Part shown: piece by piece, positions 3,012 through 61,206 of the stretch
Layout of the letters: each line of letters opens with the position of its first letter
Numbering within the stretch: the first letter of the stretch is position 1
Source of the DNA: an uncultured Acidobacteriota bacterium
GTDB taxonomy: Bacteria; Acidobacteriota; Vicinamibacteria; Vicinamibacterales; UBA2999
Assembly: GCA_963786365.1 (NCBI GenBank)
Contig: CAWAYR010000024.1
Location: 145,960-209,959 of the forward strand
Direction of reading: 5' to 3'
DNA: 64,000 nt
Made by a program: the position numbers and the translations under genes
The notes under the pieces: generated by a model
The model's database searches: none
What the model saw: the letters and a program-made list of their open reading frames with translations, nothing else
What the model was told of the DNA's origin: nothing

Positions 3012-4404
3012 CTACTCAGTTACCGAATTCGGTCGGACCTTGGTCAGCAGGAAAGGGACGCAACACCACGCGTAGATGTACCAGCTGGCCGTGTTGTTGA
3101 ACTTGTTGATGAACACCGTGAGCACCAGGGCCGCGCAGATGTGCCCCATGGTCATCAGCCAGAACGCCGATCGACGATTTCTCGAGAAGACACCGTAGAT
3201 GATGCCGGTCATCAGACCGATAGCTGCGGCGTAGACCAACGCGCCGGCCGGCCCGAAGTCACTGACCGGATAGTAGAGAAACGTGTAGGCGTTGAACGAG
3301 ACATCCTGGCCGCTCGTGAGTCCAAGCGGGACGAACGGCGGAATCCCGGGCGGCATACCCGACACGATGCCGAGGCGCTCCAGGAGCCGGCCGAGCGGAT
3401 AGATGGCTTGGCGGCCGAAGGTTCTCGGTTGAGGATTGGCCAACAGGACATCCAGGGCGGCGTACGAGGCCGTCGCGTAGAGATAGATGGTCGAGGTCCC
3501 GCGCAGGCTGTCCTGGAGTTGCGTAACCCAGGCCGGCGTCGCTTCGACCTCGATGGGCGCGGCGGGCGCACCGGGCGATTGCGGCTGGCCGGTGGCCGTT
3601 CTGGCGGTTTTGGCCGCTCGCGACTCGACTTCCAGCGTCGGGATCCGCACTTCGACGTTCAAATTGGTTGGCGTCTTGCCCTGCCACACACCGACCAGCA
3701 GAAAGTACGACCCGAGGCTCAAGAGCACCGCGGCCGTCAAGATCGTCAGCTTTGCGAGCGTCAGTCGGGCACCGGCGCTCAGCACGTAGGTGAAATACGT
3801 GGTCAGCAGCACGACGAAGAACTGTGTGCGATCAGTGGAGACCCAGTACCAGGGTGCAGACGGCAACCAGCACCCACACCCAGCGCCGGATGGCATGGCC
3901 GGTGAGCGCCAATGCCACGGCCAGAATCGGTGTCGCCAGGCACAGGAACTCGAGGGCCAGATAGTTGGATGGCACCGAGCGGTCGGAGAGCGCGATACGA
4001 ATCCGCCACGGCCGATCGACGAATGCCTCCAAGCCGAGCACCTGCGCGACTGCCGATGCGTACCAGATCAGGCCCAGGCACCCGAGCAGCCCCATGACGA
4101 TCAGGCACCGCTCGGGAGCGACCGGCGGCATCGGTCGCGGGCCCAGCCGCTGTCCCCAGCGCTGGCCGAGCCCGCTGCAGACGACGAACGCGCCAACGGA
4201 AGCGACGATGAGCCCGAAGGTCGAGCCGGCCATGGCCGCGTACGGAATCACATGGAGAAAGAAGAGGCCGAGCGTCGCCGCCCACGTTCCGAGCACGAGG
4301 ACGGCGGGGTGGAAGTAGTCGCCGGTCAGACGCCGACCCAGCGGCACGGCGGCCATCGCCAGCAGCAACAGAGACAGTGACAGGTAAGCGTTGGCACCAA
4401 TCAC
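3012..4404 (-). CDS. Polytopic membrane protein, Wzy-like oligosaccharide repeat-unit polymerase (tentative); one frame change near 3832-3896
   Basis: ORFs 3832..4404 and 3012..3896 are both strongly hydrophobic multi-TM and join end to end. There is one large hydrophilic loop. Position directly downstream of the Wzx gene supports the call. Confidence 0.5.
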
Positions 4405-17553: not shown

Positions 17554-20006
17554 ATGGCCATGCCCACCCGCGCCCGGCTGACTGGGGCCGTCATGGCCCT
17601 CCTGTGTATTTGGACGCCGGTGACGGCCGCCTGGGCGCAGCCGGCCCCGCGGCCCGCGGCGGCGGCCCGGCCGCCCGCCGGCATGGACCTGGCCCGGCTG
17701 GCCGGAATCGATGAGGTGGTGGAGCGCGCCATCGTCGCCCGGCAGCTGCCCGGGGCCGTGGTCGTGGTCGGGCGCGGCGACACGGTCGTCTACGAGAAGG
17801 CGTACGGCCAGCGCGCCGTGGCCCCGGTGGCCGAGGCGATGTCGCTCGACACCATCTTCGACCTCGCGTCGCTGACCAAGGTGGTGGCCACCACGACGGC
17901 GGTGATGCAGCTGGTGGAGCAGGGCACCGTGCGCCTCGCCGATCCGGTGGCGTCGTGGGTGCCCGGCTTCGAGCGCTTCGGGAAGGGCGCCATCACCGTC
18001 CGCCATCTCCTCACGCACGTCTCGGGCTTGCGCCCCGACGTCGATCTCGGCGAGCCGTGGAAGGGCTACGAGGCGGCCATCGAGTCTGGCGGTCAACGAA
18101 GTGCCGACCGCGCCGCCCGGTGAGCGCTTCGTCTACAGCGACATCAACTTCTTCCTCCTCGGCCACATCGTGGCGCGGGCGTCGAGCGAGCCGCTCGAGC
18201 AGTACGTCAGCCGGCACGTGTTCGAGCCGCTCGGCATGACCGACACCGGCTTCCAGCCGCCGCTCGAACGCGTCGGCCGGATCGCGCCGACCGAGCGCTG
18301 CCGTTTCCTCGACGCGTGGCCGTGCAAGGCGCCCGAGGCCGAGCCGCTGCGCGGCGTCGTGCACGATCCGACGGCGCGACGGATGGGCGGGGTGGCCGGC
18401 CACGCCGGTCTCTTCAGCACGGCCCGCGACCTCACGCGCTTCGTGCGGATGCTGCTCGGCGGCGGCGCTCTTGGTCCGCGGCGCGTGCTGTCGCCGCTGA
18501 CCGTGGCCAAGATGATCACCCCGGCCACCCCCGCCAGCCTGAGCGCGCAGCGCGGCCTCGGGTGGGACGTGGACACGGGCTTCTCGGCCAACCGCGGCGA
18601 GCTGATGCCGCTCGGCTCGTTCGGCCACACCGGCTTCACCGGCACGTCGATCTGGGTCGATCCGCGGACGAAGCTGTTCGTGATCTTCCTCTCGAGCCGC
18701 CTGCATCCCGACGGCAGCGGCGACGTCACGCCGCTGCGGGCGCGCGTCGCCACCATCGCCGCCGCCGCGCTCAGCGGCGGGCCGGGGCTCGACGACCCGA
18801 CCAGCCTGCGCACGACCGGCACCGACTTCGGCGCTTCGCCCGACCCGGCCCGGCCCGTGCCCGGTACGCCGACCACGCGCGTGCTCACCGGCATCGACGT
18901 GCTCGCCCGCGACGGCTTCGCGCTGCTGCAGGGGCGCAAAGTCGGGCTCATCACCAACCACACCGGGCGCGCCGCCAACGGCACGCCGACCATCGACCTG
19001 CTGCACAAGGCGCCGGGGGTGTCGCTGGTCGCGCTCTTCAGCCCCGAGCACGGCATCCGCGGCGTGCTCGACGGAGGACGTGGCGTCGTCGAAGGACGAG
19101 GCCACCGGGCTGCCGATTCACTCGCTCTACGGCGAGACGCGACGGCCCACCGACGCGATGCTGCAGGGCATCGACACGCTGGTCCTCGATCTGCAGGACG
19201 TCGGCGCGCGTTTCTACACCTACGCGGCGACGATGGGCTACGCGATGGAGGAAGCGGCGAAGCGGAAGATCCGCGTCGTCGTCCTCGATCGGCCCAACCC
19301 GATCGGCGGCTGGCAGATCGAGGGGCCGCTGCCCGACGCCGACCTGCTCAGCTTCATCGCCTACATGCCGATGCCGATTCGCCACGGGCTGACGCTGGGC
19401 GAGCTGGCGATGCTGTTCAACGCCGAGCGGTCGATCGGCGCCGACCTGACCGTGGTCCGGCTCGAAGGCTGGCGGCGTGACCAGTGGTTCGATCACACCG
19501 GGCTGTCGTGGGTCAACCCGTCGCCCAACATCCGCAACCTGACCCAGGCCGCGCTCTATCCCGGGATCGGCGCCATCGAGTACGCCAACGTCTCGGTCGG
19601 CCGCGGCACCGATCAGCCGTTCGAGCAGATCGGCGCGCCGTGGATCGACGGTCCACGACTGGCGCAGGCGCTCAACGCCCGGGGCTTGCCCGGCATCCGC
19701 TTCTATCCCGTGCAGTTCACCCCGATGTCGAGCGTGCACGCCAATGTGCCCTGCCAGGGCGTGTTCATGGTGGTGACCAACCGGGAGGCGCTGCAGCCGG
19801 CGCGCGTCGGCCTCGAGATCGCCGCGGCGCTGTGGCGCCAGCACGGCGACCAGTTCGACAAGAAGACGTCGGAGCGGCTGCTCGGCTCGCGCGCGGATTT
19901 CGCCCGCGCCAAAGCCGGTGAGGACCCGGCCGCGATCGCCGCCGGCTGGGCCGGCGCCGAGGCCGGGTGGCGGCGCCTGCGAGCCAAGTACCTGCTCTAT
20001 CCGTAA
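17554..20006 (+). CDS. Fusion: beta-lactamase-fold serine hydrolase (AmiE-like) + DUF1343/NamZ-like domain; frame changes near 18100 and 19080
   Basis: Signal peptide, the SxxK motif (DLASLTKVV) and GHTGFTGTS in ORFs 17554/18101. Then LTGIDVL...GLITNHTG...LFSPEHG and RFYTYAATMGYAMEEA...VLDRPNP...WVNPSPN in ORFs 18101/19080, which is the DUF1343 pattern. Confidence 0.75.
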
Positions 20007-36142: not shown

Positions 36143-39100
36143 ATGCGTGCAGCCTTCGGCGTTCGGTCGATGTTCGTCGCGGGCGTGATGTTGGCAGCCG
36201 TCGCAATGCTGCGCGGTCAGTCACCGCAATCCACCGGCACGTGGGCCGACGCCGGGCTCGGCGGCGCTGTGCCCCGCGGCGGCGCAGCGGTCGCGCTCCC
36301 CGACGGGCGCACGCTGATCCTTGGCGGGGCGGCAGCCGACGATACGCCGTCGAGCGCTGCACTGCTGTACGACCCGAGCACCGGGACACTGACTCAGCGC
36401 CGGCGCGTTGCTGTTCGCACGCACGGGCCACGCGGCAACCGCGTTGAGCGATGGGCGCATCGTGGTGTCAGGTGGCGTCATCGGCGGGCTCGTGACCGGC
36501 GATGTCGAGATCTTCGATGTCGCCGCCGGCACGTCGTCGCTCGCCGCCGTGTTGCCGGAACCGCGCCGCGGACATGCCGCGGCTCGCCTTGCCGGCGACG
36601 CGGTGCTGATGGCCGGCGGAAGCGGCGTCGACGGTACCGTGCTGCGCACGGCCGTCGTGCTCGATCCGGCGACCGGGGCCGCCACCGTTCTGGACAGCCA
36701 GCTGTCGACGGCGCGCACGGACGCGTCGGCGACGCGGCTCATCGACGGCCGGGTGCTGGTGGCTGGCGGCAGCGACGGCGCCGCCGATTGGCCTCCGCGG
36801 AAATCTACGATCCGTTCGCGCAGACTTTCTCGCCGCTCACGACCGCGATGTCGGTGCCGCGTCGCGGTCACGCTGCGATCCTGCTGCCCGACAACGCGTC
36901 GGTCCTCGTCGGCGGCGGCACGTCGAACGGCGTCGCCCAGTCCGCTGTGGATCTCTTCCTGCCGGCCGAGTTCCCCGACCCGTTCTCGTACGGCGTCGGC
37001 CAGTTCGCGCCGACCGGGGCGATGTCGGCGGCTCGCACTGCTGGCGTGACGACGCCGACCGGCATCGAGGGCTATGCCATCGCCGACGGCGGCGGCGCGT
37101 CGAACGCCGAGGTCTACCGTTTTGCGACCATCAGGACCGATAAGGACGACTACGCGCCGGGCGAGCTCGCGCTGATCACCGGCACGGGATGGCAGCCGAA
37201 TGAAACCGTGCGGCTGACGTTCCAGGAAGATCCGGCGGTGCATGACGACTACGTCATCGACGTCGTCGCCGATCCGCAGGGCAACCTGCGCTGGGACCAG
37301 TGGGCGCCGGAATACCACGATCTGGGGGTCCGCTTCTACCTGATGGCGTCGGGCGGCGTGTCAAAGGCACAGACGACGTTCACGGACGCGCTCAAGGTCA
37401 CGGTCAAGCGCAGAAACCCGAATGCGGCGACCTTCAGAGTTGCCAGCGGTTCGACGACTCCCGTGACGTTCGAGCTGATCAACGCCAACACCGGCGGCGA
37501 CAAGAATTCGTCCATCAACATCAGTTACTCGCTCACGGTAACGGGTGCCACGGCCACAGGTATTCCGTTGACGGCCTCTGGCATCACGATACCTAGCAAC
37601 AGCAGCATCTTTCGGACATGGAGTATCGTCGTCCCTACTGGGCCAGCGTCGGCGACCGTCACGTTGTCGGCGACGGTGAACCTCTGCCCGGCGTGTGACG
37701 TTGGGACTGACTCCTATACCATCAACGTCGCCGCGCCACCACCATCCGACTCGACGCCACCCGTGATCACACCGAACATTACGGGCACGCTGGGCAACAA
37801 CGGCTGGTATACGAGCAACGTCGACCTCACCTGGACTGTCACGGACCCCCAGTCGTCAATCTCGTCCTCGACCGGCTGCAGTCCCTCCAGTGTTACGACC
37901 GACACTGCCGGCACGACGTTCACGTGCTCGGCGACGAGCGCCGGTGGCACCAGCAACTCGTCGGTCACCATCAAACGCGACGCGTCCAAGCCGAACGCGC
38001 CGACTGCCTCGGCCACGCCGCCGCCCAATGGCAGCGGCTGGAACAACACCGACGTCACGGTCGCGTTCGCCTCGGCCGGCGACAACGGCCCGAGCGGGGT
38101 CCTGTCGTGCACGCCGTCGAGCACGCTCACCGCCGAGACTGCCGGCACTGCCGTGACCGGCACCTGCACCGACAACGCCGGCAACGTGAGCGACGCCAGT
38201 TCCCTCACCGTGAAGATCGACAAGTCCGCCCCGAATGCGCCGATTGCATCGGCCACACCGGCGCCGAACGCCAGCGGCTGGAACAACACCGACGTCACCG
38301 TCGCGTTCGCCTCGGCCGGCGACAACGGCCCGAGCGGAGTCCTGTCGTGCACGGCGTCGAGCACGCTCACCGCCGAGACCGCAGGCACCGCGGTCTCCGG
38401 CACGTGCACCGACACCGCCGGCAACGTCAGCGGAACCAGCTCGGTCACCGTGAAGATCGACAAGACCGCGCCGAACGCGCCGACTTCCTCGGCGACGCCG
38501 GCGCCCAACGCCAGCGGCTGGAACACCACCGATGTCACCGTCGCGTTCGCCTCGGCCGGCGACAACGGCCCGAGCGGCGTGGCCTCCTGCACGGCCAGCC
38601 AGTCGTTCACGACCGAGACGAGCGGGACTCTGGTCTCGGGCACCTGCATCGACAACGCCGGCAACACCAGCGCGGCGACCGATGTGACGGTAAAGATTGA
38701 CAAGACCGCGCCGAACCCGCCCACGGCCACCCGCACTCCACCGGCCAACGCCGCCGGCTGGAACAACAGCGACGTCACGGTGAGCTTCGTGTCGGCGGGC
38801 GACGTCGGGCCCAGCGGCGTGGCCTCGTGCACGACGCCGACCACCCTGACCGCGGAAACGGCCGGGACGAACGGTCTCGGGCACCTGCACCGACACCGCC
38901 GGCAACGTCAGCGGGACCACCGACGTGACAGTGAAGATCGACAAGACGGCGCCGGACGCGCCGGCGGCGTCGCACTTACCGGCCCCGAACGCGGCGGGCT
39001 GGAACAACGCCGACGTCACGGTCTCGTTCACGCCGTCGACCGACGCGCTGAGCGGCATCGCCTCGTGCACGGCGCCGACGACGTTGACGACCGACACCGC

Positions 39101-40765
39101 GTCGACGGTCGTCTCCGGCACCTGCATTGACAACGCGGGCAACACCAGCGCCAGCACCGACGTCACGGTGAAGCTCGACAAGAGCGCTCCCAACGCGCCC
39201 ACGGGATTCGAGGACGCCGCCGGCCAACGCCGCCGGCTGGAACAACACCGACGTCACGGTGAGCTTCGTGTCGGCGGGCGACGTTGGGCCCAGCGGCGTG
39301 GCTTCGTGCACGGCGCCGACCACCCTGACGGCCGAGACGTTGGTGGGGGGCACGGTGGTCTCCGGGACGTGTACCGACACCGCCGGCAACGTCAGCGGGG
39401 CCACCGACGTGACGGTGAAGATCGACAGGACGGCGCCAGACGCGCCGGCGGCGTCACACGTGCCGGCCCCGAACGCGGCGGGCTGGAACAACGCCAACGT
39501 CACGGTCTCGTTCACACCGTCGACCGACGCGCTGAGCGGCATCGCCTCGTGCACGGCGCCGACGACCCTGACGACCGACACCGCGTCGACGGTCGTCTCC
39601 GGCACCTGCACTGACAACGCCGGCAACACCAGCGCCAGCACCGACGTCACGGTGAAGCTCGACAAGAGCGCTCCGAACGCGCCCACGGGATCGAGGACGC
39701 CGCCGGCCAACGCCGCCGGCTGGAACAACACCGACGTCACGGTGAACTTCGCGTCGGCGGGCGACGTCGGGCCCAGCGGCGTGGCTTCGTGCACGGCGCC
39801 AAGCACCCTCACCGCGGAAACGGCCGGGACGAACGTCTCGGGTACCTGCACCGACACCGCCGGCAACGTCAGCGGGACCACCGACGTGACGGTGAAGATC
39901 GACAAGAGCGGCGCCAAATCCGCCGACGGCATCGCGAACACCGGCGGCGAACGCGGCCGGCTGGAACAACACCGCCGTCACGGTGACGTTCGCCGCGGCC
40001 GGCGACCACGGCCCGAGCGGCGTCGCCTCCTGCACGGTCCTGCCGCCGTTCACCGCCGACACGGGCGGCACCCTGGCGTCGGGGACATGCACCGACGCTG
40101 CCGGTAACAGCAGCGGTGTCACCAGCCTCACGGTGAAAGTCGACACCGTGCTGCCGACCATGGCGGTCACTGGCGTCGCCAATGGGGAGATCTACATCCT
40201 GGGGGCGGTGCCGGCGGCCGCGTGCAGCACGACCGACCCACTGTCGGGCGTCGACGCGGCCGCGACGGTCGCGGTGACCGGCGGCGTGCCTCCGGGCGTC
40301 GGCACCTTCACAGCCACGTGCAGCGGCGCGACCGACAAGGCCGGCAACGCGGCGGCGCCGCCGGTGAGTGTCACCTACCAGGTGCAGTTCGCGCCGGCCG
40401 GCACGACCTGCCTCGGTGCGCCAGCTCATCAGGTGCTGCAGCCGATCAATGTCGATGGCTCGAGCGTCTTCAAGCAGAAGAGCACCGTGCCGGTGAAGTT
40501 CCGTGTCTGCGATGCCAATGGCGTCTCGATCGGCGCCAACGTCGTCGCGGCCTTCAATCTCGTGCAGGTGACCGGCGCCACGGCCACTCCGGTCAACGAG
40601 GAGGTCCAGTCGACGACGCCGGACACGGCGTTCCGCTTCGACCCGACCGCGCAGCAGTGGATCTTCAACACCAACACGAAGCCGCTGTCGGCTCCCCTGG
40701 CATATCGCTACCGCATTTTGCTGACCGACGAAACGACGATCGAGTACGTGTTCACCCTGAAGTAG
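36143..40765 (+). CDS. Giant secreted surface protein: Kelch-like beta-propeller + about 10 Ig-like repeats + C-terminal PxKF-like domain; 5 frame changes
   Basis: Starts MRAAFGVRSMFVAGVMLAAVAML (signal peptide). Kelch-like repeats run through ORFs 35681/36408. Repeats of KIDKxAPNAP...GWNNTDVTVxFxSAGDxGPSGV...GTCTDxAGN continue through ORFs 35681, 38925, 39259 and 39983. The C-terminus is INVDGSSVFKQKSTVPVKFRVCD...FRFDPTAQQWIFNTNT. Confidence 0.8.
37969..40146 (+). repeat. Nine tandem coding repeats of about 240 bp (80 aa) inside the giant surface-protein gene
   Basis: The period is marked by recurring GTGAAGATCGACAAG...GGCTGGAACAAC blocks. Units at 38944-39183 and 39427-39663 are near-identical, as are their neighbours, indicating a two-unit (about 480-bp) super-repeat duplication. 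Confidence 0.85.
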
Positions 40766-40843: not shown

Positions 40844-42871
40844 GTGCTCGCACGGACGACTCGCTGGGTGCTGGTGGCCGCCTTCACGCTGGCGTCCGCG
40901 CTGCTGGCCGGCGTGCTCGGGCAGGCCAGCCTGCTCCAGCAGCTCGAGCTGAAGACCTACGACGCCCGTCTGCGCGCGGTCGCGACCGGCGAGGGCCCGC
41001 CGCCGGCGATCGCGCAGGTCCTGATCGACGACCACTCGATCCGGCAGCTGGAGCCGATGGTCGGCCGCTGGCCGTGGCCGCGGATGGTCCACGCGGTGCT
41101 GGTCGACTTCCTGGCGCGCGGGCCGGCGACGCTCGTCGTCTACGACGTGCTGTTCAGCGAGGAGGCCAAGGGCACCTCCGAGATCGGCGGCACGACATGG
41201 ACCGGGGCCGAGAGCGACGACGCGCTCGTCCAGTCGGTGGCCAAGGCCGGCAACGTGATCCTCGCTGCCGAGGCGTCGAGCGAGGGCCTGGTCGATGCCA
41301 GCCAGAACGTGCAGCCGGCGCTGGCCGACATCCCGTCACTGCGGGCCCGATGGCCGCTGACCGGCTTCGCCGAGCGGCGGCCGCTCCTGACGCCGCCGTT
41401 TCCGGCGCTGGCGCGGGCCGCCCGCGGCATCGGCCATGCGCGCCTCGCCTACGACCCGGATGGTCCGGCCCGCCGCTACGTGCCGTTCGTCGAGGTCGCC
41501 GGTCACGTCGTGCCCTCGCTGCCGGTGGCCGCGGCGCTGGCGGTGCGCGGCGTCGGCCCCGACCAGGTGTCGGCGACGCGGGCCGCCCTGAGGCTGGGCC
41601 CGGCGCGCGTTCCGTGGGTCGAGCAGGTGGTGCCCGACTACTACGGGCCGGCACAGACGGTGTGGCGCGGGCTGGTGCCGTTCCGCGGGCCGACCATGCG
41701 TGCCGATCGCACGCCGACGTTCCCCTCGTATTCCTTCCAGGACGTGTTCCTCGCCGAACAGCAGCTGCTGGCCGGTGAGACACCCCATCTCGACCCGGCG
41801 GTGTTCAAGGATCGGATCGTCGTGGTCGGGGTCACGGCCGAGGGCCTCAAGGACATCTTCACGACGCCCTTCGGCGAAGGCAACATGCCCGGCGCCGAGT
41901 TCCACGCCAACGTGCTCGACGGCCTGCTCACGAACCGCACCATCGCCCCGGCCGCGCCGTGGCAGCGCGTGTTGACCACCCTGGTGCCGGCGCTGGCGAT
42001 CGGCGTCGTCGGCGCGCTGGCCGCGCCGTGGGCCACGGCGGCCGCGGCGCTGGCCGCGTCGGCGCTGCTCGCGTGGTACACGACACGAGCCCTCGGCCAC
42101 GGCGTGTGGCTGCCGCTGGTGGTACCGGTGCTCGCCGTGGTGCTGACGTTCGTCGCCGACCTGGCGTGGAGCTACTTCGTCGAGGGCCGCGAGAAGCGGA
42201 GGGTCAAACGGCTGTTTTCGCGCTATGTGTCCAAGGATGTGTATCAGCAGCTGCTCGCCAGCCCCGGCGAGGTCGGCCTGGGCGGCGAGCGTCGCGAGAT
42301 GACGGTGCTGTTCTCGGACATGCGCGGCTTCACCACGCTGTCGGAGAGCGGCGAGGCGGAAGATCTCGTCCGCCAGCTGAACCAGTACTTCACGCGCATG
42401 GTGGCGGTGGTGTTCGCGCACCGCGGCACCGTCGACAAGTTCGTCGGCGACATGGTGATGGCGCTGTTCGGGGCGCCGCTCGACGACCCCGACCATGCCG
42501 ATCACGCGGTGCAGACGGCGCTGAAGATGGTCGACGAGCTGCAGGACCTGAACCGGCGCTGGGCGGTGGAGGGCCGGGCCGCCCTCGACATCGGCATCGG
42601 CATCAACACCGGCGAGATGATTGCCGGGAACATTGGGTCCGATACGATCATGAGCTACACCGTGATCGGCGACAACGTGAACCTGGGGGCCCGGCTCGAG
42701 TCGCTCAACAAGGACTACGGCACGCGGATCCTGATCTCCGAGGCGACGCGGCGTCAGTTGAAGGGACACTATGATGTCCGGGCGCTCGGCGAGGTCACGG
42801 TGAAGGGCAAGACCCGGCCGGTGGCGATCTTCGAGGTCCGCACCGACGTGAAGAAAGAGGCATCCGCATGA
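40844..42871 (+). CDS. CHASE2 sensor domain-containing class III adenylate/guanylate cyclase
   Basis: Intact 675-aa ORF with a GTG start. N-terminal TM, a large extracytoplasmic region, three TM helices, then the cyclase motifs TVLFSDMRGFTTLSE, KFVGDMVMALFGAP and GIGINTGEMIAGNIG. Confidence 0.85.
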   Translation: MLARTTRWVLVAAFTLASALLAGVLGQASLLQQLELKTYDARLRAVATGEGPPPAIAQVLIDDHSIRQLEPMVGRWPWPRMVHAVLVDFLARGPATLVVYDVLFSEEAKGTSEIGGTTWTGAESDDALVQSVAKAGNVILAAEASSEGLVDASQNVQPALADIPSLRARWPLTGFAERRPLLTPPFPALARAARGIGHARLAYDPDGPARRYVPFVEVAGHVVPSLPVAAALAVRGVGPDQVSATRAALRLGPARVPWVEQVVPDYYGPAQTVWRGLVPFRGPTMRADRTPTFPSYSFQDVFLAEQQLLAGETPHLDPAVFKDRIVVVGVTAEGLKDIFTTPFGEGNMPGAEFHANVLDGLLTNRTIAPAAPWQRVLTTLVPALAIGVVGALAAPWATAAAALAASALLAWYTTRALGHGVWLPLVVPVLAVVLTFVADLAWSYFVEGREKRRVKRLFSRYVSKDVYQQLLASPGEVGLGGERREMTVLFSDMRGFTTLSESGEAEDLVRQLNQYFTRMVAVVFAHRGTVDKFVGDMVMALFGAPLDDPDHADHAVQTALKMVDELQDLNRRWAVEGRAALDIGIGINTGEMIAGNIGSDTIMSYTVIGDNVNLGARLESLNKDYGTRILISEATRRQLKGHYDVRALGEVTVKGKTRPVAIFEVRTDVKKEASA

Positions 42872-44016
42872 ATCGTCGCATCCTCGTCGCCGCGGCCGGG
42901 GCCCTGGCCCTGGCGCTGCCGGCGTCGGCTCCGGCCGAACAAATCGGCAAGCTGCAGAGCGCGCTGAAGCGCGTGCAGCAGATCAAGGACGTCGAGATGA
43001 CCGAGGCCGACGAGGCTCAGCTCGGCGCCGAGGTCAGCACCCGCATCCGGGCCCGCTACGGCGTGGTCCAGGACCAGGCCGCGCACCGCTATGTGTCGCT
43101 GGTCGGGATGGCGCTGGTGATGGCCAGCTCGAAGCCGGGGCCGAACTGGAAGTTCATCATCCTCGACACCGACGCGGTCAACGCGTTCGCCGCACCGGGC
43201 GGCTTCGTGCACATCACCAAGGGCGCGCTGGCGAATCTGAAGAACGAGTCGGAGCTCGCCGGCGTGCTCGCCCACGAGATCATCCACGTCACCGACAAGC
43301 ACACCATCCGCGCCATCCAGAAGGGCAAGCTGGTGCAGATGGGCGCCGACGAGACCGTGGCCGGCAACAGCGCGCTCATGAGCAAGCTCGCCGACAAGGC
43401 CTACGAGGTGATCGAGAGCGGCTTCGGCCGCGGCGAAGAGCTCGAGAGCGACGAGAAGGGCATCGTGATCGCCAACGCCGTGGGCTACGCGCCGCAGGGC
43501 ATGAACGGCTTCCTGAACATGCTGGTCGAGCGCAACAAGAGCGGGCAGCCGGCCAAGAACGGCCTGTTCGCCTCGCATCCCGAGACCAAGGAGCGCATCG
43601 ACAAGATGACCCAGCAGATCGCGTCGGCCAAGCTCACCTCGACGGCCACCGTCGCCGAGCGCTACACCGCGACGATCACCTTCACACCGGTCGCGGCCGC
43701 CGAGATCGCCACCATCGAAGCGGGGTCGGCCGGCGCCGCCGGGGCCACCGCCAAGCCGGCCGAGGAGCCGAAGAAGAAGGGCCTGGGCGGTCTCACCGGG
43801 GCCTTGAAGCCGAGCGGCGGCGAGCGCAAGTCGGCACAGGTCACCGGCTCGGGCGCGGCCCGCGGCGCCGGCGGCGAAGACCGCCTGGCCAAGGGCGGGT
43901 CGAATCCGGCGCTGGTCGCCGTCACCGTGAGTGCCGCGGACCTCGCCGAGTTCAAGAAGGCGGGGGGACTCGAAATAGCAGGGACCAGGGACCGGGGACC
44001 GGGGACCAGGGACTGA
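42868..44016 (+). CDS. Secreted M48 family zinc metallopeptidase
   Basis: Signal peptide, HEIIH (HExxH) and a downstream EELESDEKG glutamate. ATGA overlap with the cyclase stop. The last 12 codons are encoded by the GGGACCR heptamer array. Confidence 0.8.
   Translation: MNRRILVAAAGALALALPASAPAEQIGKLQSALKRVQQIKDVEMTEADEAQLGAEVSTRIRARYGVVQDQAAHRYVSLVGMALVMASSKPGPNWKFIILDTDAVNAFAAPGGFVHITKGALANLKNESELAGVLAHEIIHVTDKHTIRAIQKGKLVQMGADETVAGNSALMSKLADKAYEVIESGFGRGEELESDEKGIVIANAVGYAPQGMNGFLNMLVERNKSGQPAKNGLFASHPETKERIDKMTQQIASAKLTSTATVAERYTATITFTPVAAAEIATIEAGSAGAAGATAKPAEEPKKKGLGGLTGALKPSGGERKSAQVTGSGAARGAGGEDRLAKGGSNPALVAVTVSAADLAEFKKAGGLEIAGTRDRGPGTRD
43981..44015 (+). repeat. Heptamer tandem array (GGGACCR) x5
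   Basis: GGGACCA GGGACCG GGGACCG GGGACCA GGGACTG. It overlaps the M48 stop codon and ends 6 nt before the MscS GTG. Confidence 0.9.
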
Positions 44017-44021
44017 CAGGC

Positions 44022-45443
44022 GTGCAACTGCCCCTGGTCACGGTCGTCGCGCTGGGCGTGGTGCTGGCGGCGCTCGCCGCCGTGCGCAGCCGGTTCGTGC
44101 GCGCGCGGCTGGCGTTCGCGGCCATGCTGCTCGTCGCCGCCGCCGCGCTGGAAGTCGCGGTCGGCCGCGCCTGGGGCGATCCAGTGCTGCTCGCCGGACT
44201 GGCGAAGCTGTCGATCGTCGCGGCCGGCGTGCTCGCCGCCGTCTCGCTGGCGTTCAATCCGTGGCGCCAGAATCGCCCCTCCGATCGCGTACCGGCGATC
44301 GTGCAGGACGTCATCGTCATCGCGCTCTTCGCGGTGGCGACGACGCTGCTGCTCGACGAGAAGCTGCTCACCACCTCGGCGGTCGGTGCCGTCGTCATCG
44401 GGTTCGCGCTGCAGGACACGCTCGGCAACCTCTTTGCCGGCCTCGCCATCCAGATCGAAAAGCCGTTCAGCGTCGGCCACTGGATCCGCGTCGGCGAGCA
44501 CGAGGGCAAGGTGCAGGAGGTGACGTGGCGCGCCACCAAGCTGCTGACCAAGGCCGGGCAGTTCGTCATCGTGCCCAACAGCGTGATGTCGAAGGACCCG
44601 ATCCTGAATTACTCCGAGCCCACGGTGCCGACCCGGCTCGAGATCGACATCGGGCTCAGCTACGACGCCGCGCCGAACGACGCCAAGCGCGCGCTGCACG
44701 AAGCGCTGGCCAACGCCCCGCTGGTCATGCGTTCGCCCGAACCCGACGTGGTCATCAGCGACTTCGCCGGCTCCTCGGTCAACTACCGCCTCCGCTTCTG
44801 GGTCGACGACTACGGCCGCGATGAAGCCGCGCGCGACCAGGTGCGCAGCAATCTCTGGTACACGCTGCGCCGTTACGGCATCGAGATCCCGTATCCGATC
44901 CAGGTCGAATACAGCCGCGAGGAGCAGGCCGGCCGCCCGCCGTCGCGGATTCGCTACGTCGCCGATCGGCTGGCCGAGATCGATCTCTTCACCGGGCTCG
45001 ACGACGTGGATCGGGCCCGGCTCGCCGAGGCGTGTCCCGAGCACCTCTTCGGCGCCGGCGAGCGCATCGTGCGGCAGGGCGACGCCGGACAGTCGATGTT
45101 CGTCGTGCTCGACGGGCGCGTGCGGGTCACGCTCGAGCCGTCGGGGCAAGAAGTGGCGGTGACCTCACGCGGCGGTTTCTTCGGCGAGATGTCGATGCTG
45201 ACCGGTGATCCCCGCACCGCGACGGTCTCGGCGCTCGACGACGCGCTGCTGCTCGAGATCTCGGCCGAGCGCTTCCGCGAACTGGCGGTGATGCGCCACG
45301 GGCTGGTGGAACACGTGAGCGAGCTGGTGTCGGCGCGGCGGGCCGGGCTGGCGTCGGCACGGGCGGCCGCCGAGGAAGCGCAGGCGGGCGCGCCGAGCAG
45401 GGCGGGGCTGCTCGAGCGGATCAAGAACTACCTCTCGCTCTAG
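44022..45443 (+). CDS. MscS-family mechanosensitive channel with a C-terminal cyclic-nucleotide-binding domain (bCNG-type)
   Basis: Intact 473-aa ORF with N-terminal TM helices. The MscS core is LGNLFAGLAIQIEKPFSVGHWIRV...VIVPNS. The CNB motif is GGFFGEMSMLTGDPRTATVSA. Confidence 0.85.
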   Translation: MQLPLVTVVALGVVLAALAAVRSRFVRARLAFAAMLLVAAAALEVAVGRAWGDPVLLAGLAKLSIVAAGVLAAVSLAFNPWRQNRPSDRVPAIVQDVIVIALFAVATTLLLDEKLLTTSAVGAVVIGFALQDTLGNLFAGLAIQIEKPFSVGHWIRVGEHEGKVQEVTWRATKLLTKAGQFVIVPNSVMSKDPILNYSEPTVPTRLEIDIGLSYDAAPNDAKRALHEALANAPLVMRSPEPDVVISDFAGSSVNYRLRFWVDDYGRDEAARDQVRSNLWYTLRRYGIEIPYPIQVEYSREEQAGRPPSRIRYVADRLAEIDLFTGLDDVDRARLAEACPEHLFGAGERIVRQGDAGQSMFVVLDGRVRVTLEPSGQEVAVTSRGGFFGEMSMLTGDPRTATVSALDDALLLEISAERFRELAVMRHGLVEHVSELVSARRAGLASARAAAEEAQAGAPSRAGLLERIKNYLSL

Positions 45444-45491
45444 GGGGCTCGGGTCCCGGGGCTCGGGACCGGACCGTCACGCTGTCACGCT
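45444..45491. repeat. Heptamer + octamer tandem array between convergent genes; contains a hairpin
   Basis: GGGGCTC GGGTCCC GGGGCTC GGGACCG GACC, then GTCACGCT GTCACGCT. It starts 1 nt after the MscS stop. The last octamer overlaps the stop of the minus-strand gene. Hairpin GGTCCCG-GGGCT-CGGGACC lies at 45452-45470. Confidence 0.85.
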
Positions 45492-46128
45492 ACCAGCGCC
45501 ACGCACCACCACGGCGGCGCTCGCCTTCGTTGTAGCCCTGGTCGTAGCCGCGCTCGAAGCCACGACGGTAGCTGCCCTCGTAGACGCCCTTGGGGCCGTA
45601 CTCGCGGCGGTAGCCCTGGTCGGCATCGCGGTAGCGGCCGTGCCGGCGGGGGTCGTAACGGTCGCGATCGCGGCCGTCGTCCGCGCCGCGCTTGTAGCCC
45701 TCTTCGAATCCGTTGGCGTAGCCGATGTCGTCGGAGACGCCGCCGTAGCCCGAGGGACGCCGCGGTCCCGGCGTTCCGCCGTACCACGGGGTCGGGGCGC
45801 GGCGCGCGCCGGCGCCACGGCCGCCGGCCGAGTAGAAGCCGTCGCGGTAGCCGGCGACGAAGCCGGCCCGGTACTGCTGAGTGTAGGCGTCGCGCCGGTT
45901 GTCGCGGCTGCTGTAGCCGCGGTCGGCGGCGCGGTAGTCGCGGTGGCGCTGGTATTCGAAGCCGCGGCCGCTCCTGGCGTCGTCGCCGCCGGCCCGTGCG
46001 CCGTCGCGGTAACCGCTGTCATAAGCGCCGCCGCCCGAGCCGTCGCGCCGCTGTGCCTCGGCCGGTGCCGCCGCGAGCGCGACCACCGTCAGGGCGGCGA
46101 ACGTGGCAACCAGAAGCTGTGCACGCAT
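45490..46128 (-). CDS. Secreted R/D/Y/G-rich low-complexity protein
   Basis: Intact 212-aa ORF with a signal peptide (AAPAEAQ). Recurrent GYRDG / RDRYD / GYxxGY motifs. No globular domain was recognised. Confidence 0.55.
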   Translation of the reverse strand: MRAQLLVATFAALTVVALAAAPAEAQRRDGSGGGAYDSGYRDGARAGGDDARSGRGFEYQRHRDYRAADRGYSSRDNRRDAYTQQYRAGFVAGYRDGFYSAGGRGAGARRAPTPWYGGTPGPRRPSGYGGVSDDIGYANGFEEGYKRGADDGRDRDRYDPRRHGRYRDADQGYRREYGPKGVYEGSYRRGFERGYDQGYNEGERRRGGAWRW

Positions 46129-53025: not shown

Positions 53026-55053
53026 CCGGCCGATTCGTCACCGTGACGCTGGCACTGGCGCTGGGAGCGCTGGCGGGATGCCGGTCAGGCACGACGACGC
53101 CGGGCCCCGCCACCGCTGGCCCGCCAGAGGCGTTGCGTCATGCCAACGTCCTGCTGATCACGATCGACACGCTGCGCGCCGACCGCGTCGGCGCCTACGG
53201 CAGCCGGGCCGGGCTGACCCCGACCCTCGACCGGCTCGCCGCCGAAGGCGTGCGGATCGACCGCGCCTACGCGCACGTGCCGCTGACGCTGCCCTCGCAC
53301 ACCACCCTGATGACCGGCGCGCTGCCGTTCACCAACGGCGTTCGCGACAACGGATCGTTCCGCTTCGACCAACAGCGGCCGACGCTGGCCACGACGCTGA
53401 AGGGCGCCGGCTATCGCACCGGCGCGTTCGTCGCGTCGTTCGTGCTCGATGCCCGCTTCGGCCTCAACGCCGGCTTCGACGACTACGACGATCGCAACGG
53501 CTCGCGCCCGGCCGGCGGCGACCTGGCCGTGCTCGAGCGCCGGGCCGACGCCATGGTCGACGCCGCCCTGGCCTGGATCGGCCCGGCGTCGGCGGCCGCG
53601 TCGCCGTGGTTCGCCTGGCTGCACCTCTACGATCCCCACGATCCCTACGATTCCGCCCGAGCCGTTCAAGTCGCGGCTGGCAGGCGACGCCTACGGCGCC
53701 GAAGTTGCCTTTGCCGACGCGCAGGTGGGACGCGCCCTGCAGGCCCTGCGGGATCGCGGCCAGCTCGATCGCACGCTGGTCGTCGTCGCCGCCGATCATG
53801 GCGAGTCGCTCGGCGAGCACCAGGAACGGACGCACGGCCTGTTCGTCTACGACGCGACGATGCGGGTGCCGCTGCTGCTGTGGGCGCCGGCGGCGCTGCC
53901 GCCGGCCGTGGTGCCCGGCCCGGTCGGCCTGGCCGACGTGATGCCGACGGTGCTCGACCTGGTCGGCGTGACCGCGGTCCCGGGCGACGGGCGCAGCCTG
54001 TGGCCGGCGGCACGTGGCCAGGCCCTCGAGGACCGCGACGTCTACCTCGAAGCGCTCAACGCCAACCTGACCCGGCACTGGGCCCCGCTCACCGCGCTGG
54101 TCGCCGGCGCGACGAAGTTCATCGACCTGCCCGAGGCCGAGCTCTACGATCTGGCGGCCGACCCGGGCGAGACCCGCAACCTGCACGCCGCGCAGCCGGA
54201 GACGGCGGCGCCGGTGGCCCGCCGCTTGTTCGCGCTGCGCGCGCGCGGCCGGCCGGCGGCGCCGTCGGCGGTTGACGCCGAGACGGAGCGCCGGCTGCGT
54301 TCGCTCGGCTACCTCGTCACCCCGGCGCCCGCGACCGGTGACGGGCGCGCGTACGGCGCACAGGACGATCCCAAGGCGCTCGTCGGCCTGCACAACGCCC
54401 TCGACGACGCGCTCGCCGCGGTGAAGGCGGGGCGAGGGCCCGAGGCCGAGCGCCTGCTGAAGGGCGTGATCGCCGCCCGGCCCGACTTCACCGTCGCCCA
54501 CGACCGGCTGGCGCAGCTCTATCGCGACAGCGGCCGGTTGCGCCAGGCGGTGGCGACGCTGGAGGCGTCATCGCGCGCCGGCCACGCCGACGCCGCCTCG
54601 CTCGCGGCGCTCGGCGGCTACCTGCAGGAGGCCGGCAACCTGGCCCGGGCCGCCGAGGTGCTGGAGGCGGCTCGCGCCCTCAACCCCGCCGAGATGGAGG
54701 TCTACGAGAAGCTCGGGATCACCTACACGCGGCTGGGCCGCGCCGAGCAGGCGCACGCGATGTTCGCCCATCTGCTGTCGGTGGCCCCCAATTCGGCGAC
54801 GACGCTCAACAACCTCGGCTCGCTCTATCTGAGCCAGCGACGCTGGGACGAGGCCGTTCGGACGTTGACCAGGGCCCTGGCCATCGACCCGACGCTGGCC
54901 AACGCCCACAACGGCCTCGGCGTGGCCCATGCCCAGCAGGGCGACTTCGACCGGGCGATCGCCGAGTGGCGGGCGGCGCTGGCCCTGCGGCCCGATCTGA
55001 CCGACGCCCGCGACAACATCGCCCGCGCCGAGCAGCTGAAGCGCCAGAAATAG
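53022..55053 (+). CDS. Lipoprotein: alkaline-phosphatase-superfamily (sulfatase-like) domain + TPR repeats, paralog 3; one frame change at about 53651
   Basis: The GTG at 53022 overlaps the previous stop (GTGA). Lipobox LAGC. Motifs are LITIDTLRADRVG, VPLTLPSHTTLMTG and AADHGESLGEHQERTHG, followed by TPR repeats. Removing one T of the TT at 53651-53652 restores YDPPEPFK. Confidence 0.8.
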
Positions 55054-55055
55054 AA

Positions 55056-55087
55056 CGGGGGCGGTCCACCGAAGTGAACCGCCCCCG
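55056..55087. terminator. Bidirectional-type GC hairpin between convergent genes
   Basis: CGGGGGCGGT / ACCGCCCCCG, a 10-bp perfect stem with a 12-nt loop, 2 nt after the TAG at 55051-55053. Confidence 0.5.
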
Positions 55088-55121
55088 CGTGACCGTCTAC
55101 GGGCAGTCGTCGAGGTCTTCC

Positions 55122-55142
55122 CTAGCCCCTAGCCCCTGTTCC
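55122..55142. repeat. Heptamer array CTAGCCC x2 ending in CTGTTCC
   Basis: CTAGCCC CTAGCCC CTGTTCC, 10 nt beyond the stop (55152-55154) of the minus-strand TonB receptor gene. Same family and same CTGTTC ending as 61172-61206. Confidence 0.7.
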
Positions 55143-61059: not shown

Positions 61060-61062
61060 TCA

Positions 61063-61093
61063 GCGGTGGCGGCTAGCGGCTAGCGACCACCGC
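61063..61093 (+). terminator. Hairpin whose loop is an inverted heptamer pair (CGGCTAG x2)
   Basis: GCGGTGG (61063-61069) / CCACCGC (61087-61093), a 7-bp stem. The loop CGGCTAGCGGCTAGCGA is the reverse complement of the CTAGCCG heptamers at 61172-61199. It starts 4 nt after the TGA at 61057-61059. Confidence 0.4.
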
Positions 61094-61094
61094 C

Positions 61095-61168
61095 GTCACA
61101 CTGTTCAGGCGGTCACGCTGTCACGCTCTCACGCCGTACACATTGCCACGCTGGCATGCGTCGCCATG
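61095..61168. repeat. Degenerate octamer array (GTCACGCT family), about 9 units
   Basis: GTCACACT GTTCAGGC g GTCACGCT GTCACGCT CTCACGCC GTACACATT GCCACGCT GGCATGCG TCGCCATG. The exact dimer GTCACGCTGTCACGCT also occurs at 45476-45491. Confidence 0.7.
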
Positions 61169-61171
61169 AGT

Positions 61172-61206
61172 CTAGCCGCTAGCCCCTAGCCGCTAGCCGC
61201 TGTTCG
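61172..61206. repeat. Heptamer array CTAGCCS x4 ending in CTGTTCG
   Basis: CTAGCCG CTAGCCC CTAGCCG CTAGCCG CTGTTCG, 118 nt upstream of the ADOP permease start. It is complementary to the loop heptamers at 61070-61083. Confidence 0.85.

Follow-up and report, generated by a model that had tools for sequence, protein, structure and literature searches.

G-rich heptamer arrays at gene ends around a bCNG channel gene in Vicinamibacterales (Acidobacteriota)

The repeats described here are two G-rich arrays of seven-nucleotide units that lie on either side of a bCNG gene, coding for an MscS-type channel with a cyclic-nucleotide-binding domain, in a 64-kb stretch of contig CAWAYR010000024.1 from an uncultured bacterium of the Vicinamibacterales (Acidobacteriota); this whole stretch is called the window below. 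Their closest described counterparts are the G-rich heptameric repeats of Rehm et al. 2015, known from two Xanthomonas genomes (unit GGGAATC) and from Nostoc PCC 7120 (unit GGGGA(C/T)T, the STRR heptamer) (PMC4692102). In these three genomes the repeats are spread genome-wide, are over-represented in non-coding DNA, and comprise 2-26 units with four preferred. They form quadruplexes in vitro, are mostly transcribed, lie nearer to the 5' neighbouring open reading frame (ORF) regardless of its orientation, and are rare between divergent genes. Some are inverted, and both length and sequence vary widely between close relatives at the same spacer (PMC4692102).

Two further descriptions of heptamers are relevant. 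The STRR heptamers, whose 7-bp repeats can fold into hairpins and occur in the hupS-hupL operon spacer among other places, have been proposed to act in transcript stability or translational coupling (PMC2670836). The intergenic heptamer TAACTGA is known from Beggiatoaceae, Cyanobacteria and Bacteroidetes (MacGregor 2015, PMC4679880). It is AT-rich, is mostly present in 2-6 copies just upstream of starts on the coding strand, and has been suggested to provide binding sites for a translational regulator (PMC4679880). Thus, repeats of this sort are not confined to cyanobacteria, the only hosts named in a preliminary description of the window made from its sequence. Literature searches on such repeats in Acidobacteria and on the exact sequences found here returned nothing relevant, and a search on CCCCAGT returned primer matches only.

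We consider it likely that the arrays in the window are non-coding, slippage-prone G-rich heptamer microsatellites of the Xanthomonas and Nostoc kind, which includes STRR, residing here in Vicinamibacterales, and that the array-encoded tail of the adjacent M48 protease results from a one-base frameshift. The arrays fill short spacers at gene ends, from or near the stop codon, with the G-rich strand on the coding strand (Table 1). Direct reading of the sequence and Tandem Repeats Finder agree with the preliminary description that heptamer arrays lie on both sides of bCNG. Five units do stand at 43981-44015 (GGGACCA GGGACCG GGGACCG GGGACCA GGGACTG), of which the fifth is a variant that contains the TGA at 44014-44016. 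Tandem Repeats Finder assigns 43979-44013 a period of 7 with 5.0 copies and 92% matches, and five G3-4 tracts lie within 43979-44015. The first base of the downstream array directly follows the bCNG TAG stop (45441-45443), within a 46-nt gap that separates convergent genes. Its heptamers are joined by the spacer GACC to a pair of octamers whose final two bases are shared with the CTA (= TAG) stop of the convergent gene. Both arrays therefore begin 0-2 nt after a stop codon, if the ancestral one is taken for M48.

Table 1. Coordinates of the arrays and associated features in the window.
Feature	Position	Strand	Basis and remarks
Additional C (1-nt insertion compared with five relatives), which throws the M48 frame off shortly ahead of the ancestral stop	43971..43971	+	Alignment of six loci
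Vestigial TAG, the ancestral M48 stop, now out of frame	43976..43978	+	Alignment; orthologue C-termini
G-rich heptamer array upstream of bCNG: (GGGACCR)x4 + GGGACTG = (CAGGGAC/CGGGGAC)x5	43979..44015	+	Sequence; Tandem Repeats Finder
TGA closing the frameshifted M48 ORF	44014..44016	+	Also directly after the array of L001; 5 nt before the bCNG GTG start
bCNG gene: MscS channel domains + cyclic-nucleotide-binding domain	44022..45443	+	Pfam PF00924, PF21082, PF00027; GTG start
G-rich heptamer array GGGGCTC GGGTCCC GGGGCTC GGGACCG	45444..45471	+	Four G3-4 tracts; 7-bp hairpin 45452-45458 / 45464-45470
Octamer pair GTCACGCT x2	45476..45491	+	Overlaps CTA stop (45490-45492) of convergent gene 45490-46128
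(AGGGGCT)x2.6	55120..55137	-	14 nt past stop of minus-strand gene ending at 55152
Two-armed composite	61067..61201	+	Starts 8 nt past a TGA stop

The window holds five arrays at four sites. The composite at the fourth site consists of (GCGGCTA)x2.7 at 61067-61085, a degenerate (GTCACGCT)x~7 at 61091-61153 and an inverted (CTAGCCG)x4.3 at 61172-61201. Period-7 self-matches (21 nt, at most two mismatches) are present twice in the window, at 43977-44013 and 61172-61201, and are absent from 100 dinucleotide shuffles, which indicates that the arrays are more than chance. Because the same or analogous arrays occupy orthologous spacers in independent ENA, NCBI and JGI assemblies, they are also not an assembly artefact restricted to this contig, a possibility that the preliminary description had raised. 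An Rfam scan of the whole window at gathering thresholds found a single tRNA and no match at the arrays.

Comparison of orthologous loci reveals that the genes are fixed while the arrays change. The order CHASE2-adenylate cyclase, M48, bCNG, convergent gene and ornithine-cyclodeaminase-family (OCD) gene is kept in all fetched relatives. The bCNG protein has 473 amino acids, as in the intact orthologues of L002-L006, L204, L205, L210 and L211. The first convergent gene is not constant: the one of 212 amino acids occurs in L001-L006 and is missing from the P0031 lineage (L204, L205). The spacer between M48 and bCNG carries (GGGACCR)5 in the window and in L001, and (GCGGCTN)3-4 in L002, L004, L005 and the L204 group. 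In L003, it carries about nine C-rich GAGCCCC units, the complement of the window's GGGGCTC, located 7 nt upstream of the bCNG start and thus with the G-rich strand on the non-coding strand.

Four different unit types follow bCNG. The window has GGGGCTC GGGTCCC GGGGCTC GGGACCG with (GTCACGCT)2, and L001 has (GGGAACW)5 with (GTCACGCT)5.6. L002 has (GGGGCTG/GGGACTG)4, about 100 nt of other sequence, and an inverted (CCCCAGN)4 that ends at the neighbour's stop. L004 has (GGGACCR)4, GTCACGCTGTCACGCGTGAC and an inverted (CTGGTCC)4, and L005 differs from it in having eight left-arm and three right-arm units. L003 retains only TCCCTGGTCCC, the L204 group has no array after bCNG, and L006 has none in either spacer, its two stop codons after bCNG overlapping in CTAG. 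The M48 proteins of L004 and L005 are identical, and their difference in left-arm copy number (four versus eight) therefore represents strain-level variation. Unit sequence, copy number and orientation thus all vary at a single intergenic site between relatives whose M48 proteins are 80-91% identical, and the arrays turn over far faster than the genes. In L001-L004, related arrays also come after two further genes, that for proline racemase and one that is fn3-like.

The same relatives explain the unusual end of the M48 protein. The M48 ORF (42868-44016, Pfam PF01435) codes for 382 amino acids and, as the preliminary description stated, takes its last residues and its stop codon from the array. 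It terminates in ...GGLEIAGTRDRGPGTRD (also given as ...FKKAGGLEIAGTRDRGPGTRD), with the array itself translated as AGTRDRGPGTRD. Exact look-ups of the window's M48 and bCNG proteins gave no entry, while a protein search with M48 returned 120 close relatives of 366-376 amino acids, belonging to Vicinamibacterales or Acidobacteriota where named. Among these orthologues, whose C-termini the preliminary description had proposed to compare, 116 of 120 end in ...GGL[K/R/S/T] and none carries a GTRD-type tail. The window reads GGACT[C]GAAATAG where L001, L002, L003, L004 and L006 read GGACT-GAAGTAG or an equivalent. The insertion is unique to the window, and the identity of the inserted base at 43971 is alignment-ambiguous within CTCG. 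Without it, the window M48 would end Gly-Leu-Lys-stop as in its relatives. With it, the TAG falls out of frame, and translation would continue across the spacer, adding 14 new residues before another stop is reached.

L001, the closest relative (M48 91% identical), is particularly informative. Its M48 gene ends ...GGA CTG AAG TAG and is followed by a five-unit array (1203-1237), TGA and the bCNG start. This array has the same five units as that in the window and is non-coding, lying after an intact TAG. The alignment shows the upstream array to be ancestrally the M48-bCNG spacer. An array that expanded into the M48 3' end or was inserted over it, as previously suggested, does not fit either this arrangement or the single inserted base ahead of an otherwise intact TAG. 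The extra C is instead either a stop-loss accident or an assembly indel. Seven genes near M48 match their orthologues in length to within a few residues where start calls agree, and so the assembly is not error-prone in general. The L001 contig is error-prone, with bCNG split into ORFs of 244 and 189 amino acids and the OCD and proline racemase genes also split. At the M48 3' end, L001 agrees in frame with four other loci and the window is the outlier.

To determine how the arrays are distributed, we conducted a local census of period-7/8 arrays with at least 2.8 copies in 251 kb, comprising the window and loci from Vicinamibacterales and other Acidobacteriota. With crude gene calls based on G+C content at third codon positions (GC3), which cover 75% of the sequence, 67 of 80 arrays lie outside called genes (p about 1e-27), an excess in non-coding DNA like that of the Rehm-type simple sequence repeats (SSRs). 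Periods 7 and 8 are the commonest of the periods that are not multiples of three in this Acidobacteriota sample, and 8-kb pieces of related metagenome-assembled genomes (MAGs) carry 3-6 arrays each. The period-7 repeats at gene 3' ends first described for the window are confirmed.

A wider scan of metagenomes with the pattern (GGGACCR)3GGGACC matched at least 120 contigs with a G+C content of 0.35 to 0.75, and all counts in this paragraph are among the matches listed. We oriented arrays by their G-rich strand and retained the 41 on high-G+C contigs that lie outside ORF calls and have called neighbours on both sides. The array is nearer to its 5' neighbour in 32 of these 41 cases (binomial p 4e-4); the median distance to that neighbour is 14 nt, as against 122 nt on the 3' side. 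Within 50 nt, a neighbour is found on the 5' side in 27/41 cases and on the 3' side in 5/41. The 5' neighbour is a same-strand gene, with the array past its stop, in 24 cases. In the other 17, it is an opposite-strand gene whose start lies downstream of the array on that gene's own strand, so that the G-rich strand is the non-coding one. Few arrays (5/41) are in divergent spacers. An inverted GGTCCC partner is present downstream in 32/120 and upstream in 2/120. The modal copy number is four (48/120), although the search pattern itself demanded at least four units; the window arrays have five and four, and those of relatives mostly 3-5, with extremes of 8.7 and 9.6. Only about 5 of 80 testable (GGGACCR)n arrays have an in-frame coding look. 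Of 104 arrays, 32 appeared to lie inside ORF calls, and a GC3-phase test showed that these are mostly spurious long ORFs in high-GC DNA. Together with the orthologous loci, these counts show arrays that are non-coding, located at ORF boundaries with a defined polarity, hypervariable, and translated only after loss of an upstream stop.

Several side observations concern contig ends and neighbouring elements. Among the matches listed, 24 of 104 arrays are within 180 nt of a contig end (loci L084-L203). In addition, short-read contigs of the P0031 lineage (ends of L207, L209, L212, L213, L210 and L211) stop in or at arrays after the M48 or bCNG stop, which suggests that the arrays break de Bruijn short-read assemblies at gene ends. 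In L111 (~1800-1990) and L122 (~3380-3470), (GGGGACC)9 precedes a palindrome, GTCATCCCGAGCGCAGCGAGGGATCTGC...GCAGATCCCTCGCTGCGCT, which resembles the kind of extragenic palindrome dispersed in soil bacteria.

All features of the repeats described by Rehm et al. that can be tested here (unit type, non-coding bias, position relative to neighbouring ORFs, variation between close relatives) are present. Seven-nucleotide units with a run of at least three G residues, arranged head to tail, occupy 43979-44015 and 45444-45471. The two sets have in common a G3-4 tract within the unit, about 4-5 units per tandem array, a non-coding bias, proximity to the 5' neighbour, occasional inverted partners, variation between relatives, and no link to a class of genes. 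They differ in host, in the units GGGACCR and GGGGCTC, in the many unit types per genome neighbourhood found here (some of which lack G3 tracts), and in the (GTCACGCT)n octamer array that lies downstream of heptamers in the Acidobacteriota lineage. Moreover, quadruplex formation and transcription were demonstrated for the published repeats, whereas the arrays here are candidate quadruplex formers by their sequence motif.

The preliminary comparison with the STRR heptamers of cyanobacteria was apt. Both consist of 7-bp tandem units, some of them hairpin-capable, in operon spacers and at gene ends. Among the relatives, L002 alone has the complementary units (GGGGACT)n and CCCCAGT, which correspond to the Nostoc unit GGGGA(C/T)T (PMC4692102). 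Mazel et al. 1990 reportedly described STRR units such as CCCCAGT. However, STRR are defined in heterocyst-forming cyanobacteria, and GGGACCR and GGGGCTC are not STRR units. By host, which the names of MAGs with orthologues place in Vicinamibacterales, and by unit, the window arrays are best regarded as resembling STRR without being members in the strict sense. Like the TAACTGA repeats, they are heptamer direct repeats in spacers near ORF boundaries, patchy across phyla and with no evident transfer mechanism, but TAACTGA is neither G-rich nor quadruplex-capable. REP/BIME and MITE elements are likewise intergenic and often past stops, and the two-armed forms seen here are stable hairpins that could, like them, protect mRNA 3' ends. 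Instead of one fixed palindrome, however, their arms consist of tandem heptamers whose number and sequence differ, and the loci compared showed neither a conserved terminal motif nor target-site duplication nor identical dispersed copies. We rejected a CsrA-type GGA sponge, since many units lack GGA, and a CRISPR-like array, which would have spacers.

With regard to origin, replication slippage, which favors 7-nt units according to literature cited in PMC4692102, would create and resize the arrays. They might then persist where they are least harmful, a pattern suggested by the polarity: as G-rich RNA after a stop and as C-rich RNA before a start. Such a filter would keep quadruplexes away from ribosome-binding regions and keep C-rich sites for Rho loading out of operons. 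Alternatively, the polarity could mean that the arrays provide a structure that meets transcription as it leaves a gene. The likeliest molecular effect, which we propose tentatively, is a structured 3' end on the transcript or on the non-template DNA strand. One-armed G3 arrays would form a G-quadruplex and two-armed arrays a long hairpin, and either might pause RNA polymerase or block 3' exonucleases. About equally plausible is that the arrays have no positive function.

Predicted structures are consistent with part of this proposal. Two-armed elements fold very stably (z -4.4 for window 61060-61206, -9.1 for L004 and -7.0 for L005), and the RNA fold of the composite at 61067-61201 reaches -71.9 kcal/mol. 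One-armed arrays, namely both at bCNG and those of L001, have no unusual fold (z -0.4 to +1.1). Both arrays at bCNG fit the canonical G-quadruplex motif G3N1-7 x4 and are its only occurrences on the plus strand of the 64 kb. The window as a whole shows no enrichment of this motif, with 3 occurrences against 5.7 +/- 1.9 in shuffles. The ViennaRNA quadruplex model is decisive only for the G4-tract array of L002 (-39.3 versus -14.1). In degenerate flanking units, 103 mismatches fall at G positions and 158 at the ACC (loop) positions.

Several findings weigh against giving the arrays such an effect or against other parts of our interpretation. Both arrays at bCNG lack excess Watson-Crick stability (z -0.4 to -1.1), and the ViennaRNA model places no quadruplex in the minimum-energy fold of either one; for L001's G3 arrays, the gain it yields is just 0.4 and 1.3 kcal/mol. 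Many sister arrays of the lineage have no G3 tracts (GCGGCTA, GTGGCTA, CAGAAGA, GCAAGAA), and a quadruplex therefore cannot explain the whole family. A hairpin followed by a T-run is absent at both arrays, and two-armed forms are not enriched between convergent genes, albeit with small numbers and crude gene calls. The array is inverted at the same spacer in L003 and missing in L006 with the operon intact in both, and so any function must be dispensable. An orientation test on all period-7/8 unit types with crude gene calls gave 20 versus 14, which is not significant; the error-prone L001 contig and (CTAGCCG)n arrays that abut genes on both sides partly account for this. No function or regulatory role was identified for the published repeats (PMC4692102). 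Finally, the extra C in M48 may be either a genuine mutation or an assembly error.

The best-surviving alternative is that the arrays are selectively neutral microsatellites, produced by slippage in any spacer, with purifying selection removing only harmful positions or orientations. We regard this as a serious contender that falls somewhat short of an even chance. Presence and absence, unit replacement and orientation flips at the same spacers among relatives with intact operons are what it would predict, and the arrayless L006, the unremarkable fold stability of the window arrays, the lack of any link between gene configuration and two-armed status, and the absence of a regulatory role in the literature (PMC4692102) all agree with it. 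It is challenged by the strong 5'-neighbour polarity, with inverted partners almost all downstream (32 versus 2 of 120 among the matches listed), and by the mode of four units both in the three published genomes (PMC4692102) and here, where the pattern required at least four. The better conservation of G tracts than of loops and the presence of the same unit types across phyla also speak against it. All four of these points could, however, arise from a selection filter without positive function.

A different possibility is that the Acidobacteriota heptamers are arms of a modular, sequence-specific element whose (GTCACGCT)n core serves as a protein- or RNA-binding platform or as a one-way transcription insulator. 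The octamer is kept at the orthologous site while the heptamers change, with 5.6 copies in L001, about two in L004, about three degenerate copies in L005 and two in the window. A search for GTCACGCT x2.6 across 185,579 species genomes returned 77 loci, 13 of them in Acidobacteriota (phylum totals are our own tally from record titles). The Acidobacteriota loci have the architecture 5'-(purine- or G-rich heptamer)n-(CTGTCACG)n-(other or inverted array)-3', and their 5' end adjoins a stop codon or the start codon of an opposite-strand gene. By our own count, about 12 of 16 octamer arrays in this phylum are preceded on the same strand by purine- or G-rich heptamers with constant polarity, and a larger composite is common to L032, L022 and L062.

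The octamer is also found without heptamers in Bacteroidota (28 loci), Actinomycetota (15) and other phyla, and among the matches listed it accompanies none of the 120 metagenomic (GGGACCR)n arrays, which makes the pairing of heptamer and octamer lineage-specific. In viral contigs it exceeds its permuted controls by only 5 to 1 to 1, and no candidate for a binding protein emerged. These results dampen our enthusiasm, and we judge the modular reading unlikely. According to a slightly less probable version, a polar intergenic element of modular build, as opposed to plain microsatellites, is present in Vicinamibacterales and some other Acidobacteriota. It would have a rapidly changing heptamer arm, purine- or G-rich, at the ORF boundary, a conserved (GTCACGCT)n core and often an inverted second arm that complements the first regardless of unit, and would be kept by an octamer-binding partner, for instance a protein or RNA, or by a one-way block to transcription. 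If this were true, heptamer turnover would be a dedicated process and not simple slippage. The octamer core with complementary arms is in any case a lineage-specific twist.

Octamers outside this setting have features of their own. Arrays of (TGTCACGC)n occur in about 28 Bacteroidota genomes (among L007-L083, e.g. L008, L031, L040, L050, L071, L073, L078 and L079), often by long AT-rich stretches or facing an inverted (GTGACAnn)n about 100 nt away, and sometimes flanked by heptamers. About 15 Actinomycetota loci with (TGTCACGC)n have TGTCACG/CGTGACA palindromes nearby. The arrays in these two phyla look origin- or operator-like. A composite of the form (CTGTCACR)n - TCCACGTTSAACG - (CAGAGRCG)n is repeated at least four times with a spacing of ~97 nt on one 5.35-Mb Acidobacteriota contig (L032:5400-6480). 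The same TCCACGTTSAACG composite is present at L022:3900-4000 and, in another MAG, at L062:5380-5460, where a putative atpG directly follows it.

As unlikely as the modular element, in our view, is that the arrays, or at least the one after bCNG, are factor-independent terminators or act as bidirectional terminators between convergent genes. The downstream array does begin right after the bCNG stop in a convergent gap and contains a 7-bp GC hairpin, and the orthologous elements of L004 and L005 and the composite at 61067-61201 form the long perfect hairpins noted above. The GGTCCCG/CGGGACC hairpin (45452-45458 / 45464-45470) singled out in the preliminary description is indeed part of the predicted minimum-energy fold. 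However, the 60-nt element as a whole is no more stable than its shuffles (z -0.37 on the plus strand and -1.1 on the minus strand), and the hairpin is followed by GGACCGTCACGC and not by a run of T/U residues, so that an intrinsic (Rho-independent) terminator was rejected. A consensus scan found no promoter or terminator at either array. In addition, the upstream array sits within an operon, where the next start codon follows after 5 nt, and two-armed forms show no preference for convergent sites. Similar arrays are also directly upstream of an ORF in L062, recognised by eye rather than by a family search, that we take to code for the ATP synthase gamma subunit (atpG); terminating transcription at such a site would do harm. 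Elsewhere in the window, a 9-bp GC hairpin at 55057-55086 (GGGGGCGGT ... ACCGCCCCC) lies 3 nt past the stop of a gene ending at 55053 and upstream of the (CCCTAGC)n array. It is terminator-like and has no T-run.

Far less probable is a genuine repeat-encoded C-terminal extension of M48, perhaps phase-variable, generated by array expansion or insertion over its 3' end. The M48 ORF does continue through the array, overlaps between repeats and stop codons are mentioned by Rehm et al. (PMC4692102), and a second, independent case exists in L002, whose proline racemase gene has lost its stop and reads 12 amino acids into a (CTAGCCG)n array. Against this stand the non-coding array of equal length and position in L001, the fact that the two loci differ here only by one nucleotide, inserted 5 nt ahead of the old stop, and the lack of the tail in all 120 orthologues. 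Phase-variation (contingency) SSRs, which would lie in the 5' part of an ORF or between promoter elements, were rejected as a model since the arrays follow ancestral stops. The genes next to the arrays are housekeeping or signalling genes. In the L002 racemase (18060-18100; compare L003:17770-17830 and L004:17820-17880), TAG has become TGG and an indel is also present, giving 352 amino acids versus 339-341 and a new end at an array-supplied TAG. With heptamers that contain CTAG, each of the three frames on either strand meets a stop within 21 nt.

Least credible of all is the earlier proposal of recombination sites or cassette boundaries, by which the two arrays would mobilise bCNG. The arrays of the window do share a GGGACC core and flank a single gene. 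In L001-L006 and L204-L211, however, bCNG follows M48 and precedes the same genes with or without arrays, the flanking arrays consist of unrelated units in L001, L002, L004 and L005 and are missing in L006, the same kinds of array occur at many other gene ends, and an attC-like gene-cassette or integron boundary is likewise excluded by invariant synteny and by sites that are unpaired, variable and absent in L006. Genes that stay fixed while arrays change argue that these are not paired sites of a mobile cassette.

Window positions 40844-45443 hold an operon-like module of CHASE2-adenylate/guanylate cyclase, M48 peptidase and bCNG that is conserved across the Vicinamibacterales relatives, with ATGA (42868-42871) containing both the stop of the cyclase gene and the start of M48. 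These features suggest a cyclic-nucleotide signalling unit that is complete in itself. The convergent 212-amino-acid protein (45490-46128, minus strand) is rich in Arg, Gly, Tyr and Asp, has a signal-like N-terminus and has no Pfam match. A large tandem repeat at 37990-40062, with a period of ~240/484 bp, 8.5/4.3 copies and 74-81% matches, has its best-supported ORFs on the minus strand (37714-38844 and 38976-39941) and probably codes for a repetitive-domain protein.

On the interpretation we prefer, slippage-prone non-coding heptamer microsatellites with a one-base frameshift in M48, the tail at this locus should not be taken as biology before a check of the reads. The two cases described here illustrate how arrays that abut stop codons turn single-base indels or stop losses into odd low-complexity protein tails. 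The phenomenon itself is already documented outside cyanobacteria; what is new is the phylum and the units, which extend STRR-like G-rich heptamers to the Acidobacteriota, an abundant and barely cultured soil phylum. The polarity published for three genomes is also seen in more than 100 unrelated metagenome contigs, and this makes a general mechanism or selection filter more credible.

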